This document shows positions 7,742 through 10,336 of a stretch of 64,000 nt of DNA, in pieces. This DNA comes from an uncultured cyanobacterium (GTDB taxonomy: Bacteria; Cyanobacteriota; Cyanobacteriia; Cyanobacteriales; Cyanobacteriaceae): positions 128,001 through 192,000 of the forward strand of contig CAVQBA010000002.1 in NCBI GenBank assembly GCA_963710605.1, read 5' to 3'. How positions within the stretch are numbered: the first letter of the stretch is position 1; every line of letters begins with the position of its first letter. Position numbers and translations under genes: made by a program. A model generated the notes under the pieces. The model was not told the origin of the DNA, did no database searches, and saw only the letters and a program-made list of their open reading frames with translations.

Positions 7742-8122
7742 GGAAAATACAATAACCGTAGTTAAAAATTGTTAATTACGATTAAAAGCAATAAGGGAAA
7801 GCTAATTAAGACAGGGAATTTTCTACTCATATACAAGAATCTATCCCACTATTATCAAAAAATAGATTGAAATAGAAAACGATCGACTCGCCATTATCTA
7901 TTACTATTTGTGAAAAGTAACCATTGCCAAAATCCCAATCGTTACGCTAGCTTCATTGGAAAGATTACCATCTTTATCTTCGCTATGTGTAGGTAAATCG
8001 ATCGATTCCCACAAATTCGCTGTTAGGTTGATAGTCAACTATGCCTTGTGAATTAACTGTGATAACGCCGTTATTTGGTTGGCTAGTTATTTGTCAGCTA
8101 TTAGGTATTAATGTACCATCAC

Positions 8123-8148
8123 GATCGGCTGAAGCCGGCGCTGCTCGC
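8123..8148 (-). mobile_element. 26-nt SDR5-like insertion in a CGATCG site
   Basis: Minus strand GATC-GCGAGCAGCGC-CGGCTTCAGCCG-ATC; removal restores NDSDRDGTLIP. Confidence 0.75.
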
Positions 8149-8197
8149 GATCGCTATCGTTAGCTAAGACATCGATGGCGATATTTTCTCCTTGCTC

Positions 8198-8221
8198 GAT
8201 CGGCTGAAGCCGGCACTGCGC
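8198..8221 (-). mobile_element. 24-nt in-frame SDR5-like insertion in a CGATCG site
   Basis: Minus strand GATC-GCGCAGTGC-CGGCTTCAGCCG-ATC; adds AQCRLQPI to the frame. Confidence 0.75.
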
Positions 8222-8876
8222 GATCGAGATTAAATCATTAAGGGCTAATGGAGCGGTAACGGACTGATTGTCAATTTTGACGTAATCGAGGTTGGTGTTG
8301 TTACTAATGGCAAAGTCACCGTTAAGAATTTCTGCCATTAATCCACTAGAGGTTAGAGAGGCAGTGAGGGAGATTCCCCCCTCTCCTTCGGAAGGAGAGG
8401 GGCTGGGGGTGAGGTTGAAAGCGTTGGGTTCAACCCCTCTGCCTATTATCGGCATCTCCCCTTCTAAGGGGAGAACAGTAGAGCTATTATAAGGAATTAA
8501 GGTGTGGTAAGTATCTGTTTTTGTATTTTGAATAGCATTAAGTATTAATACGTTGATATCGGAAGGAAGTTTACGGATACCAGGGGCTATATGGTTCTTT
8601 AGTAAGTCGTGGGGATGAGCTTGTTTGTCTAATTTTTTGTTGGCAAAGGGAGTTTCATCGATAAACCAACCTAAACCGTTGGCGTTATGATCGATTTTAA
8701 TAATACCTGCGTTAGGTTTACCCTCGGAGTCAGAAACTTGTAATGGTGGCTTCTGCTAGTTGTCCTGTGGGTAAGTCTTTTATTTCATAAGTGATATCGA
8801 TATCTGTTTGAGGTAAGAGAGTTGACCAGATGTGGTTTACGCTGTTATTTAGTTGATGAATCGTTTGGAGATTAGA

Positions 8877-9656
8877 ATGATGGACAGAGAAGAATTTTTT
8901 AGAAGGTATGATGCTGGGGAAAGGAATTTTATGGGTTACAGTGGAAGTATTGGCTCGTGCCTCGGAAATCTGAATGGTATCAATCTCCAAAATGCCATTT
9001 TGTTGAATAATTCCTTGGACCAATCTTTTTTGATTAATGCCAACTTGAGTCATGTTAATTTTGAAGGCTCCGACTTGGTTGGATGTTTCTTCAACAATTC
9101 TAATTTCAGGAATGCTAATTTGAGGAATTGTGACTTGACTGGTGCTGACTTGACTGGTGCTGACTTGACTGGTGCTGACTTGACTGGTGCTGACTTGACT
9201 GGTGCCTTCTTGCTCGATACCAATCTTACAGGAGCTAACATTACCAATGTTAAGACAAGTGGAACTATCTTTCACGAAACTATCATGCCTGATGGAAGAA
9301 TCAGTCATAAGAGTTCTCATGTTTTGGACGGAAAGGAATTGCTTAAACGTTGTCGGAAAGGTGAAACCTATTTTTCTTCCTTTATTTTGTACAAAGCCAA
9401 TTTGAATCAGACTAGTTTGAGTTCTATTACTCTCCCTTGGAGATGTATTAGAGTCAATTTTAGAAGAGTGAGCTTTGTTAATATTGACATCATTGCTAAT
9501 AATTTTGTTTTGTGTGATTTCAGGAAAGCTAATTTTAGTAGAGCGAATCTTTGGAATGGTAATTTCGCTTGTTGTGATTTCAGAGAAATTATTGGAAGTG
9601 AACAAATCAGAGGGAGTGACAGCGATGCCTTTATTTTCATTGATTGTACTAAGTAA
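8877..9656 (+). CDS. Pentapeptide-repeat protein (two modules), antisense to the large-protein remnant
   Basis: GGAG RBS 6 nt before ATG 8877; MDREEFFRRYDAGERNF N-cap, A(D/N)Lxx repeats, IFHETIMPDG cap, second module LDGKELLKRCRKGETYF. Confidence 0.85.
   Translation: MMDREEFFRRYDAGERNFMGYSGSIGSCLGNLNGINLQNAILLNNSLDQSFLINANLSHVNFEGSDLVGCFFNNSNFRNANLRNCDLTGADLTGADLTGADLTGADLTGAFLLDTNLTGANITNVKTSGTIFHETIMPDGRISHKSSHVLDGKELLKRCRKGETYFSSFILYKANLNQTSLSSITLPWRCIRVNFRRVSFVNIDIIANNFVLCDFRKANFSRANLWNGNFACCDFREIIGSEQIRGSDSDAFIFIDCTK
9131..9205. repeat. Five perfect copies of 15-bp TGACTTGACTGGTGC
   Basis: Read directly; encodes DLTGA on + and QVSTS on -. Confidence 0.95.
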
Positions 9657-9717
9657 GCGTGCTGAGGGGTCATTAAATCTTGAAGGGTTACTATTTTTGA
9701 GTGCGATCGTATCTCTT

Positions 9718-9780
9718 GTAGGGTGCGTTCTATTAAACCGTTACATATTTAAGACCATCCCATATAACAGAGAACGCACC
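9718..9780 (+). repeat. GTAG-type REP hairpin beside the RAYT
   Basis: GTAG + GGTGCGTTCT (9722-9731) ... AGAACGCACC (9771-9780); half copy GTAGGGTGCGTTCT at 10435-10448. Confidence 0.8.
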
Positions 9781-9788
9781 ACCGTTGT

Positions 9789-10336
9789 TTATTCATTAAC
9801 GATTTCTTGAGGTATTTGTGGTATGTTATCTACTCCCCAATTAGACGGATAAATTCCTTGAGCAATAAAGCGATGAATGGTTGAAAACTGCCAATCTTTC
9901 TTGTGCCGATCGACATAATTGATGACGAACCGAATTATAATGTATCTAATCACAATGTCGAGCAAAATCTTTTTCATCTCTAATCAAATGCTCTCAAAAT
10001 CTTCTTGCCAAAGATTACTTTCTTTTCGTTTTTGTCTTGAAGCAGAAATATTTCTCTTGATGCCTAATTGTTGAGCGTAATGTTTGCTGACAAATGTTTT
10101 GATTAAACGAATACGAGTAGATAAATCCCCATCCCCTTGTGGAAGAGTCCATACACAATGAAAATGCTCTGGTAACAAAACAAAAGCATCAATGGAAAAA
10201 GGATATTTTTGACGTACTTTATCGATCGCCTCTCTCAGAGCCTTCCGTGCAATTTTACCATACACGTTGTCTTTGGTAAGTTACTTGGGTAATAAAATAA
10301 GTACCACCACGAAGAATTGATACGTCAATATTTAGG
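9789..10336 (-). pseudogene. REP-associated tyrosine transposase (RAYT, IS200-like Y1 HUH), decayed
   Basis: GGTYFITQVTYQR, AFVLLPEHFHCVWTLP (HUH), LWQ/RRF*EHLIRDEKDFARHCD*IHYN, DWQFSTIHRFI; several stops and frameshifts. Confidence 0.9.

Follow-up and report, generated by a model that had tools for sequence, protein, structure and literature searches.

The window, a 64,000-nucleotide stretch of DNA from an uncultured cyanobacterium, carries on its plus strand an intact gene for a pentapeptide-repeat protein (PRP) and, on its minus strand, remnants of a gene for a giant exoprotein (Table 1). The PRP ORF matches Pfam PF00805 in 3 stretches (E=1.7e-29; score, 101.4 bits; cut-off, 20.2) and belongs to that family, which is defined by a run of some 8 or more pentapeptide repeats in tandem, of the form A(D/N)LXX, and a score above the family cut-off. 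The protein is laid out as an N-terminal cap helix, a beta-helix of ~145 residues, and a degenerate second repeat domain. Based on AF2 modeling, it is predicted to take the right-handed quadrilateral beta-helix fold, showing pLDDT values of 81 to 96 and a strand period of 5 residues over residues 1 to 140; confidence is low over residues 148 to 259 (mostly pLDDT <65), and this second half folds poorly. A Foldseek search with the model returned 31 PDB matches at E<=0.001 (the best down to 1.9e-8), and among the matches listed were HetL, NP275/276, Rfr23, MfpA, AlbG, and QnrB1, along with designed solenoid proteins.

Table 1. Features of the PRP locus, in positions of the window
Feature	Position	Strand	Details
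Intact pentapeptide-repeat protein (PRP) gene	8877..9656	+	259 aa plus stop; Pfam PF00805
GGAG, Shine-Dalgarno-like	8867..8870	+	6 nt 5' of the PRP ATG
15-nt tandem repeat, perfect	9131..9205	+	TRF: period 15, 5.0 copies, 100% matches
In-register antisense open frame, 336 codons	8733..9740	-	Spacer remnant plus first ~40 residues of the HExxH domain
Start of the conserved HExxH ("junction") domain, NNSVNHIWSTLLPQTDIDITYEIKDLPTGQLAEATIT	8718..8855	-	Genome search, 85% identity
Further giant-gene pieces, other frame, 215-codon open frame	8108..8755	-	Alignment to a 788-aa paralog, contig C6
Big_9/cadherin-like fragment, frame-shifted again	7983..8093	-	Pfam Big_9, E=1.4e-7

The 27 Leu codons of the PRP gene comprise 19 TTG, 3 CTT, 4 CTC, and 1 CTG with no TTA or CTA, and none of its 22 Ser codons is TCA. 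TTA, CTA, and TCA are all absent from the 336 in-register codons of 8733-9740, and the minus frame is therefore open. We compared this with a baseline of 2,406 long ORFs (genome GC, 33%), in which TTA and CTA make up 57.9% and 9.1% of Leu codons, TCA makes up 18.3% of Ser codons, and the three together account for 8.43% of all codons. Against this usage, the probability of finding none of them is 1.2e-10 over 259 codons and 1.4e-13 over 336. The genome has 28 sites at which in-register frames on both strands stay open over 120 codons or more, and the one at 8733-9740 is the longest. Within the PRP gene, the perfect tandem repeat encodes (DLTGA)x5 on the plus strand and (TSQVS)x5 in the minus frame.

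The minus frame is what remains of the giant exoprotein's spacer, which is rich in Ser, Gln, Ile, and Thr, and it matches the spacers of giant ORFs that are intact (34% identity in a tblastn hit at C2:137248-136733); its only Pfam hit is a subthreshold one to Cass2 (E=0.021), whose 15.5 bits fall short of the cut-off of 27. The start of the HExxH domain is in frame with the spacer up to a stop at 8730-8732, and its match in Table 1 is to residues 1 to 46 (hit G000:C2:136718-136855, E=7.6e-20). The same DNA doubles as the 5' flank of the PRP gene. Within the 215-codon frame, a deletion of ~73 residues takes out the HExxH motif and a second of ~175 residues precedes the start of Big_9 (VLANDSD). 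These pieces are 81% and 71% identical to the C6 paralog, and the Big_9 fragment is 94% identical to it. With frameshifts near 8733-8755 and near 8100, two internal deletions, and its nuclease part gone (none was found upstream beside the window's PRP), the giant gene in the window is a pseudogene. We also considered whether an SPSPSEGEGG stretch (~8350-8450, minus strand) is an inserted mobile element and dropped this reading because the intact paralog carries an equivalent stretch.

Since the giant gene is decayed and lacks its nuclease part, the window's PRP is an orphan. The genome holds about 17 to 21 PRPs of this family, the majority of which lie apart from any large gene that is still intact, and we found no intact giant gene in the assembly (84.9% complete). 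Endonuclease_NS (PF01223) is represented by a single gene, a stand-alone ORF of 256 codons on contig C5, so most of these PRPs have no cognate nuclease here. The PRPs are 30 to 48% identical to their best paralogs (81% in one pair), and the 140 nt upstream of the PRP ATG are 77 to 90% identical among paralogs. Some orphans occur in pairs (C6:565285/566068, C6:258839/259732, and C7:498658 beside a match at 499519-500184). Across 17 paralogs there are 5 antisense stops in total; two further PRP ORFs of the genome share the N-cap and have ordinary codon use, with 7 and 18 antisense stops.

A preliminary description of this DNA had reported a PRP gene without TTA, CTA, or TCA despite 27 Leu codons, GGAG before its ATG, a 336-codon minus frame, and dominance of TTA among the Leu codons of neighboring genes. 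Recounting reproduced all of these observations, the last genome-wide, and the binomial test that it proposed gave the depletion reported above. It had also held that its reading would fail if other PRP genes of the genome avoided the three codons equally; 27 use them normally, with 6 to 72 such codons each, and the 21 that do not are mostly of the same family as the window's PRP. Three of its claims about the larger gene must be revised. The minus frame does not continue into the downstream protein-like sequence (IDHNANGLGWFIDETP, Big_9), which lies in a different frame beyond frameshifts and deletions. The PRP gene is not inside an intact large gene in the window, where we find a decayed fragment with its HExxH motif deleted and no nuclease upstream, and the description of the two genes as inseparable is wrong for a genome in which most such PRPs stand away from any intact large gene.

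We searched sequencing runs with the window sequence and recovered two runs only (5 to 8% of sampled words each), with no RNA run among the matches. A promoter scan of 8500-9900 placed no site upstream of the PRP and one weak site within its gene, fewer than in shuffled sequence, and is uninformative. PADLOC recognized neither the PRP nor the nuclease and HExxH domains. Searches of openly available full text turned up no paper that describes a pentapeptide-repeat gene as antisense or nested, or that assigns nuclease inhibition to a PRP.

Nested gene pairs in other cyanobacteria

We collected 80 homologous loci by homology to the HExxH domain. An upstream antisense ORF with the PRP N-cap is present in 63 of them and is in register in all 63; another 12 of the remaining 17 carry an antisense ORF with a variant cap. 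A PRP is thus nested antisense and in register within a giant exoprotein ORF at 75 of the 80 loci, in many cyanobacterial genera. It occupies a spacer of 200 to 350 residues between an Endonuclease_NS (NucA-like) domain, found in 40 of 40 upstream segments of at least 460 aa, and the HExxH metalloprotease-like domain. The intact giant ORFs include a single open frame of 8,564 aa and an annotated 4,246-aa coding sequence in Stanieria cyanosphaera PCC 7437 (pSTA7437.01, 226571-239311); Xenococcus PCC 7305, Tolypothrix tenuis PCC 7101, and Calothrix NIES-267 likewise carry an intact locus. The product of the giant ORFs is an exported, multidomain protein with Endonuclease_NS, Big_9, PKD, and DUF4114 domains, in which the nuclease is internal (residues 1414-1646 of 4,246) and the partner gene lies antisense within the ORF.

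Nested PRP ORFs start with ATG in 63 of 69 cases, and 48 of the 69 have a Shine-Dalgarno-like purine run at -18 to -4; at the position of the start codon, the giant protein has an invariant His. ORF length by itself is unexceptional: elsewhere in the giant ORFs, the longest stretch that is open in antisense reaches a median of 132 codons, and the PRP ORF is longer than that stretch at only 36 of 56 loci. The two annotated records that we inspected each show the weakness of annotation at the nested pair: the Stanieria record has the giant gene and omits the PRP, and the Nostoc flagelliforme record has the PRP and begins the giant gene at an internal site. No firm name can be given to the HExxH domain, for which Pfam found nothing, a PDB profile search returned EcxA alone (E=0.32), Foldseek gave no match below E=0.1 (leishmanolysin, 0.14; MMP-11, 0.68), and the NCBIfam model metallo_LGF scored E=1e-8 yet fell under its cut-off.

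The two frames use the shared DNA unequally, and selection at the amino acid level rests on the PRP frame. Not one TTA, CTA, or TCA occurs in the 69 PRP ORFs, where 559 antisense stops would be expected (summed over the 56 loci having a codon baseline). Among 17 PRP pairs, which are not independent (loci L081, L114, L119, and L152 supply 6 of the 17), single-nucleotide codon differences fall at PRP codon positions 1, 2, and 3 in the ratio 232/84/563. Differences that are synonymous in the PRP and change the spacer number 494, against 139 that are synonymous in the spacer and change the PRP (~3.6 to 1). In the flanking HExxH domain, compared in 16 of the 17 pairs (flank data are absent for the G000 pair), differences track the giant frame instead (180/92/599). 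PRP codons whose antisense encodes Cys or Tyr are about tenfold rarer (GCA, 2% versus 30%; ACA, 2% versus 23%; GTA, 6% versus 25%), whereas those with antisense Ser are not (GGA, 39% versus 25%). In the giant frame, only freedom from stops and a paucity of Cys and Tyr are maintained, and its spacer is predicted to be disordered: AF2 gave pLDDT values of 24 to 35 with no secondary structure at residues 11 to 230 and 48 for the block at 231 to 240, whereas the domain after the spacer folds (72 to 89). The spacer has no Pfam family match.

Purifying selection is therefore detectable in the embedded PRP frame, and both frames are open beyond composition in many lineages. We are highly confident, close to certain, of the nested architecture and this pattern of selection when they are taken by themselves. 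The earlier proposal that both strands were under coding selection is borne out for the family by the 75 nested loci, the missing antisense stops, and the purifying selection, and its view of the large protein as exported agrees with the domains found. Its question about homologs, namely whether they carry an in-register antisense PRP and what domain precedes it, is answered by the same 75 of 80 loci and by Endonuclease_NS.

Two readings would deny the PRP gene this standing. One attributes the open minus frame of the window to chance or to the usual codon bias of PRP genes. Repeats do reuse codons, and 5 of the 27 Leu codons lie in the perfect 15-nt repeat, but the P value of ~1e-10 against genome codon usage, the 27 other PRP ORFs of the genome with their 6 to 72 such codons, and the same avoidance in 69 of 69 ORFs from other genomes already refute this reading, to which we assign a negligible probability. 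The other takes the PRP ORF for a mirror artefact of selection on a repetitive giant-protein spacer, with no PRP ever made. The antisense of a 5-residue repeat is indeed another 5-residue repeat, and the giant ORFs contain long antisense-open runs elsewhere, as noted above. We nonetheless judge a mirror artefact very improbable, given that substitutions track the PRP frame, that the spacer is predicted to be disordered and lacks a Pfam match, that the N-cap also occurs in the two genomic PRP ORFs with ordinary codon use, that the ATG and Shine-Dalgarno signals are conserved, and that the PRP yields a confident beta-helix model.

A candidate inhibitor of the adjacent nuclease

We modeled a complex of the PRP and the nuclease domain for a Waterburya MAG locus (L086) rather than for the window's PRP. 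The ipSAE, which expresses model confidence and is not a measurement, was 0.64 (runs, 0.62, 0.64, and 0.68) against 0.00 for the best control, with partner pLDDT values of at least 90 and at least 73% of contacts agreeing between runs. In calibration, 58 of 80 solved complexes attained this ipSAE mark, as did 2 of 110 mismatched pairs; the counts apply only roughly because custom alignments were used. The modeled nuclease interface comprises residues 106-108, beside the invariant G108-H109, and residues 140-151, around the invariant W146 and E150. PRP contacts repeat every ~20 residues, corresponding to a single face of the helix, and in the model this face covers the active site of the nuclease.

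Over 528 pairs, the identities of PRP and nuclease are correlated (Spearman, 0.21) and those of PRP and HExxH domain are not (0.04); the correlation is weak, and the pairs are not independent. Averaged over pairs, identity comes to 0.41 in the nuclease, 0.44 in the PRP, and 0.64 in the HExxH domain. A net acidic composition is seen in 68 of 69 nested PRPs (median charge, -8). The nuclease domains are acidic overall too (median pI, 4.95), so charge complementarity is not shown, and net charge is a weak argument for DNA mimicry.

The PRP may bind and silence the adjacent nuclease before export, a proposal that we consider evenly balanced. An acidic, DNA-like beta-helix would be made in the cytoplasm and would bind the active-site face of the nuclease domain, so that the enzyme does no harm until it is exported, much as NuiA restrains NucA. 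The nuclease and the PRP would together be a variable module whose two parts co-vary and which recombination joins to a conserved scaffold. In the window, the scaffold gene has decayed and the nuclease part is lost; the PRP is left with its conserved 5' flank and would be either an orphan inhibitor or a cassette for recombination. Taken whole, an orphaned PRP of an antisense-nested family, with an inhibitor role, a variable module, and a decayed scaffold, is probably the best explanation of the window. More tentatively, and at slightly below even chances, we suggest that the antidote to a secreted nuclease is encoded on the opposite strand of the nuclease's own gene, as a DNA-mimic PRP antisense to a disordered spacer, with detached copies persisting as orphan inhibitors or recombination cassettes. 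Antisense nesting would then make nuclease and inhibitor inseparable by recombination, to be exchanged as one polymorphic module. The earlier suggestion of an immunity or partner gene thus gains from the complex model and the co-variation and fits less well in the window itself, where the large gene is decayed and without a nuclease.

A real, nested PRP could also have another role, as a cytoplasmic chaperone or export partner, as an inhibitor of the HExxH domain, or through its mRNA as an antisense regulator of the giant gene. Nesting, selection on the PRP frame, and translation signals are compatible with any partner, two transcripts that are complementary throughout must interact whenever both are produced, and PRP functions are diverse, the nearest NCBIfam model being HetL. 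We consider such a role rather unlikely, since in the complex model (PRP-nuclease being the sole pairing modeled) the PRP sits on the active site of the nuclease and every control scores 0.00, and PRP identity follows that of the nuclease and not that of the HExxH domain. A further reading treats the PRP-plus-flank units as silent cassettes, whose conserved flank and hypervariable body recombine into an expressed giant gene and swap its nuclease-PRP module; this would explain why orphans stay stop-free on the minus strand. It draws on the divergent paralog bodies beside a well-conserved 140-nt upstream flank, on the paired orphans and the few antisense stops over 17 paralogs, and on the uncoupled identities of PRP and HExxH domain, as recombination at the border would give. 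Silent cassettes are nonetheless improbable in our estimation: the assembly, which is 84.9% complete, yielded no intact giant gene, we observed no recombination event, and recent decay would explain the few stops equally well.

If the nested reading is true, these loci hold a bacterial pair of protein genes in which one is fully nested antisense within the other and which is deeply conserved. An embedded gene of a textbook family, a giant host ORF, recurrence of the pair in dozens of cyanobacterial genera, and frame sharing that is legible from substitutions make it a clean natural case of two proteins coded on one stretch of DNA. PRPs are abundant in cyanobacteria, and if the inhibitor idea is also true, DNA-mimic nuclease inhibition would be one concrete function for them and a new class of inhibitor for widely used nonspecific nucleases.

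Comparison with known systems

The window's PRP resembles MfpA, Qnr, and AlbG structurally, to judge from its model, in having the acidic right-handed quadrilateral beta-helix that is thought to fill an enzyme's DNA-binding surface. Those proteins target DNA gyrase, whereas the target proposed here is a nuclease, and scores against the NCBIfam Qnr/MfpA models (NF033086 and NF000349) were 41.2 and 44.4 bits against cut-offs of 240 and 360. The best NCBIfam matches are to HetL (NF047416, an equivalog model; E=9.5e-23, 80.8 bits against a cut-off of 260, aligned from the N-cap) and Alr5209 (E=4e-20, 72 bits against 125). Both scores are under their cut-offs, and the window's PRP is therefore not a member of either group. 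HetL is encoded by a free-standing gene.

Polymorphic toxin systems (Rhs, CDI) reportedly include orphan toxin-immunity cassettes, as Zhang et al. are said to have described in 2012. The loci studied here may be similar in that a variable enzymatic domain and a variable, putatively cognate small protein sit on a conserved scaffold, and their orphan copies keep a piece of conserved sequence. They differ from the arrangement of a C-terminal toxin with an immunity gene directly downstream, as the nuclease is internal and its partner is antisense inside the ORF.

NucA of Anabaena sp. PCC 7120, a secreted sugar-nonspecific nuclease, has a cytoplasmic protein inhibitor, NuiA, shown to block its active site (PMC2790893). 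Both systems pair a secreted cyanobacterial Endonuclease_NS nuclease with a small cytoplasmic protein, and the active-site block shown for NuiA is proposed here. The window's PRP, modeled as a PRP beta-helix, does not have the NuiA fold described in PMC2790893. A nuclease is encoded with the putative inhibitor in the homologous loci (40 of 40), whereas for the window the PF01223 match is on another contig. In the homologous loci the gene of the putative inhibitor is antisense within the ORF of the nuclease protein and not adjacent to that ORF, the nuclease forms a single domain in a protein of 4,000 to >8,000 residues, and inhibition is modeled.

Fully nested antisense protein genes are rare in bacteria and mostly disputed, because they are usually known from one species and weakly conserved. 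One proposed case, from E. coli O157:H7, is pop, which lies antisense to ompA (PMC7103648) and shares with our loci a complete protein ORF embedded antisense in another coding gene. Cases of this type rest on expression data from one species, whereas the PRP pair is known from sequence. Unlike pop, the embedded gene described here belongs to a well-known family, is conserved over many cyanobacterial genera, and bears selection at the amino acid level.

A PRP gene nested antisense in genes for giant secreted proteins

We found that the gene for a pentapeptide-repeat protein (PRP) lies in codon register within a stop-free minus-strand frame and avoids the codons that would close that frame, confirming the preliminary description on both points. 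The gene carries GGAG 6 nt 5' of its ATG. Its 27 Leu codons comprise 19 TTG, 3 CTT, 4 CTC, and 1 CTG, with no TTA or CTA, and none of its 22 Ser codons is TCA; the antisense frame is open because these three codons, which read as stops on the in-register opposite strand (antisense stops), are absent. Based on 2406 long ORFs standing in for genes of the window's genome (3.93 Mb, 7 contigs, 33% GC, completeness rated 84.9%), TTA and CTA supply 57.9% and 9.1% of Leu codons and TCA 18.3% of Ser codons, and the three together make up 8.43% of all codons. Tested against this usage, their complete absence from 259 codons has P=1.2e-10. In the structure model of the protein, the first ~140 residues are confident and resemble solved PRPs, and the second half is of low confidence.

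Features of the PRP gene and of the giant-gene remains around it in the window
Feature	Position	Strand	Details
PRP ORF	8877-9656	+	259 residues; Pfam Pentapeptide E=1.7e-29
In-register antisense open frame	9740 to 8733	-	336 codons
Spacer and start of junction domain	to 8733	-	then shift into 8108-8755 frame
Junction-domain piece, shifted frame	8108-8755	-	~73-residue deletion (HExxH motif lost), then ~175-residue deletion
Big_9 fragment	7983-8093	-	after another frame shift
Putative broken REP-associated or IS200-like Y1 transposase, two adjacent ORFs	9789-10265	-	at expected site of nuclease part

The conserved part of the minus-strand frame is an HExxH (metalloprotease-like) domain of giant secreted proteins, here called the junction domain; the PRP ORF is antisense to the spacer that precedes it. 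Searching 61 related genomes, including the window's own, we found junction-domain matches in 8, the window's own counted. One match (G053) sits inside an 8564-aa open frame with an Endonuclease_NS-like part, a Ser/Thr/Ile/Gln-rich spacer, the junction domain, and then Big_9 and PKD domains, and the spacer carries an antisense 148-aa PRP ORF (MDREELLRRYAAGERDFSG...). A second genome (G052) has this same arrangement, and the homolog in a third (G055) begins just 5' of the junction domain, with neither spacer nor PRP.

Scanning a single genome for each prokaryote species with the junction-domain alignment, we obtained 142 relatives and kept the best 80. All but one of these 80 (79) are labeled cyanobacteria, from genera including Nostoc, Calothrix, Tolypothrix, Xenococcus, Waterburya, Chamaesiphon, Crocosphaera, Acaryochloris, and Leptolyngbya. 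A contig labeled as a Bacteroidota MAG (L084) shares the nested architecture, and its PRP and the one in a Nostoc MAG (L092) are 71% identical; the contig is probably cyanobacterial and wrongly binned. Under a strict pattern for the N-terminal cap, 63 of the best 80 loci show an antisense ORF of 80 aa or more directly before the junction domain, and all 63 share the codon register of the junction-domain frame. By eye, a variant-cap PRP lying antisense and in register was recognized in 12 of the 17 remaining loci (one broken, one ended by the contig end), and in 5/80 the upstream sequence is unrelated. Thus, the in-register antisense ORF that the preliminary description proposed to look for in homologs is present in 75 of the best 80 of 142 relatives. 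As to which domain precedes the spacer, Endonuclease_NS was found in 43 of 72 scanned upstream segments, including 40/40 of those of at least 460 aa and 3/32 of the shorter ones.

Public annotation of the overlap is inconsistent between two plasmid records. For Stanieria cyanosphaera PCC 7437 (L158, pSTA7437.01), the annotation includes a 4246-aa protein with Endonuclease_NS at 1414-1646, Big_9 at 2258-2346, 14 PKD stretches, and DUF4114, and leaves out the nested 151-aa PRP ORF. The Nostoc flagelliforme record (L157, pNFSY07) includes the PRP and gives the large gene an internal start, with an overlap of 69 nt between the two.

Constraint on the two strands

With a minimum length of 90 aa, the homologous loci yielded 69 PRP ORFs. 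None contains TTA, CTA, or TCA, against 559 expected over the 56 loci with sufficient flank, the expectation being based on how the flanks within each giant ORF encode Leu and Ser. The start is ATG in 63/69, a Shine-Dalgarno-like purine run occurs in 48/69, and the giant protein has an invariant His where the PRP start codon lies.

Substitutions were compared in 17 PRP pairs of 60-99% identity, which are non-independent (6/17 come from four related loci). Differences at codon positions 1/2/3 numbered 232/84/563 in the PRP frame of the overlap and 180/92/599 in the giant frame of the flanking junction domain, the latter for 16 of the 17 pairs, as the pair from the window's genome lacks flank data. 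Within the overlap, 494 differences were synonymous in the PRP and changed the spacer, 139 did the reverse, 179 changed both proteins, and 67 changed neither. These position and synonymy counts show that amino-acid constraint changes strand exactly in the overlap, where it sits on the PRP strand; in the flank it sits on the giant frame.

Some constraint also acts on the giant frame. PRP codons read as Cys or Tyr on the opposite strand are depleted about tenfold, including GCA (Ala; 2% in nested PRPs, 30% in flanks) and ACA (Thr; 2%, 23%), both antisense to Cys, and GTA (Val; 6%, 25%) and ATA (Ile; 6%, 15%), both antisense to Tyr. The A-ending codons antisense to Ser are not depleted (GGA [Gly], 39% and 25%; CGA [Arg], 33% and 21%). 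The Cys/Tyr depletion also occurs in 17 PRP paralogs of the window's genome. Spacer composition is 17.6% Ser, 11.4% Ile, 9.1% Gln, 0.3% Cys, and 0.6% Tyr; Cys is also scarce (0.1%) in the remainder of the giant proteins. AF2 modeling with a 33-row alignment gave spacer residues 11-230 pLDDT values of 24-35 and no secondary structure, a mean of 48 for the block 231-240, and 72-89 for the junction domain behind it. We consider a dual-coded locus at the level of the family to be well supported and very probably real.

Decay in the window and orphan PRP genes

The preliminary description also placed the PRP inside a large secreted-protein gene here, and this part was not supported: the large gene of the window is a dead remnant, with frameshifts, two deletions, and a missing nuclease part, and the PRP copy is an orphan. 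Of the two putative transposase ORFs, the one at 9984-10265 (-) falls slightly short of the Pfam Y1_Tnp cut-off (E=2e-4). The peptide RFNRTHPT opens the far end of the antisense frame at 9717-9740 (-) and recurs at C7 ~499333-499356 of the same genome, suggesting that the two loci have a repeat element in common at the break point; an (A)QCRLQPIE or AQRRLQPIE stretch, which may be a small inserted repeat, interrupts the Big_9 region at 8160-8200 (-) and appears again at C7 ~497900. Queried by tblastn with 4193 residues from a giant ORF of Waterburya, the genome shows no intact giant gene; at ~20 places the match is confined to the spacer and the initial ~40 junction-domain residues. The genome's only Endonuclease_NS match is a stand-alone 256-codon ORF on a contig other than the window's (C5:276186-276791 [+], E=1.5e-58).

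Equal avoidance of TTA, CTA, and TCA by the other PRP genes of the genome, named in the preliminary description as evidence against its reading, was not observed. The 157 PF00805 matches collapse to 48 ORFs, 27 of which carry 6-72 such codons; the other 21 carry 0-3 (11 none, 7 one, 2 two, 1 three). Both strands are open in register for at least 120 codons at 28 places, the longest being the window's, and judged by their translations 18 of these are PRP ORFs. Three long non-PRP stretches of this kind, at C6:218093-218644, C7:562801-563265, and C4:131263-131691, encode Gly/Asp/Asn-rich repeat proteins and have a higher GC content (0.43-0.54). The cap pattern M..EELLRRY.AGERDF picks 19 ORFs, 17 with 0-1 antisense stops and two with 7 and 18, so the cap also occurs on PRPs of ordinary codon use. 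At six or more loci, the antisense frame continues in frame into NQLNNSVNHIWSTLLPQTDIDITYEIKDLPSGQLAEATITGFD..GKPNAGII.IDHDANG.GWFID.TP..HEAAHLYGF, and on contig C6 the two form a 788-codon ORF with a Big_9 domain at its end.

These paralogous PRPs are 30-48% identical to their best paralog, except for one pair at 81%, whereas identity reaches 77-90% in the ~140 nt leading up to the start codons, a flank of which 13/17 paralogs have 60 nt or more in common. The 17 orphan genes hold 5 antisense stops in total. This near-absence might reflect detachment in the recent past, a role as recombination cassettes, or short products translated from the minus strand. PRP ORFs also occur in adjacent pairs (C6:565285-566571, C6:258839-260112, C7:497848-500184, and C2:64431-65787), reminiscent of orphan-cassette arrays; in the C2 pair, the member at 65212-65784 alone lacks antisense stops, and its neighbor at 64431 has 8.

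A candidate nuclease inhibitor among known parts

The PRP always follows the nuclease domain. Nucleases of this family are known to require protection in the cytoplasm, NuiA being the inhibitor of Anabaena NucA (PMC2790893), and MfpA, Qnr, and similar PRPs are regarded as DNA mimics. Based on this position and these precedents, we modeled the complex of nuclease domain and nested PRP from one Waterburya MAG locus (L086), using a 34-row alignment per chain. The ipSAE, a model confidence, was 0.64 (runs 0.62, 0.64, 0.68) and none of three controls scored above 0.00, with partner pLDDT for the pair of at least 90 and contact agreement between runs of at least 73%. In calibration, the mark was reached by 58/80 solved complexes and 2/110 mismatched pairs, counts that are only rough here because we supplied our own alignments. 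Predicted nuclease contacts include residues 106-108, beside invariant G108-H109, and 140-151, around invariant W146 and E150; those on the PRP are spaced ~20 residues apart, forming one face of the helix.

Over 528 non-independent locus pairs, identity averaged 0.41 between nuclease domains, 0.44 between PRPs, and 0.64 between junction domains, and PRP identity correlated weakly with nuclease identity (Spearman 0.21) and showed no correlation with junction identity (0.04). Nearly all nested PRPs (68/69) are net acidic, which adds little to the inhibitor idea, as the nuclease domains are acidic overall too. That the PRP inhibits the nuclease is a supported hypothesis, to which we assign about an even chance.

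Full-text searches of the main text of open-access articles turned up no description of a PRP gene lying antisense to or nested in another gene, nor of a PRP that inhibits a nuclease. The parts are of known kinds, namely PRPs, Endonuclease_NS nucleases, nuclease-inhibitor pairs, and antisense overlapping genes; their combination and the depth of its conservation appear to be new.
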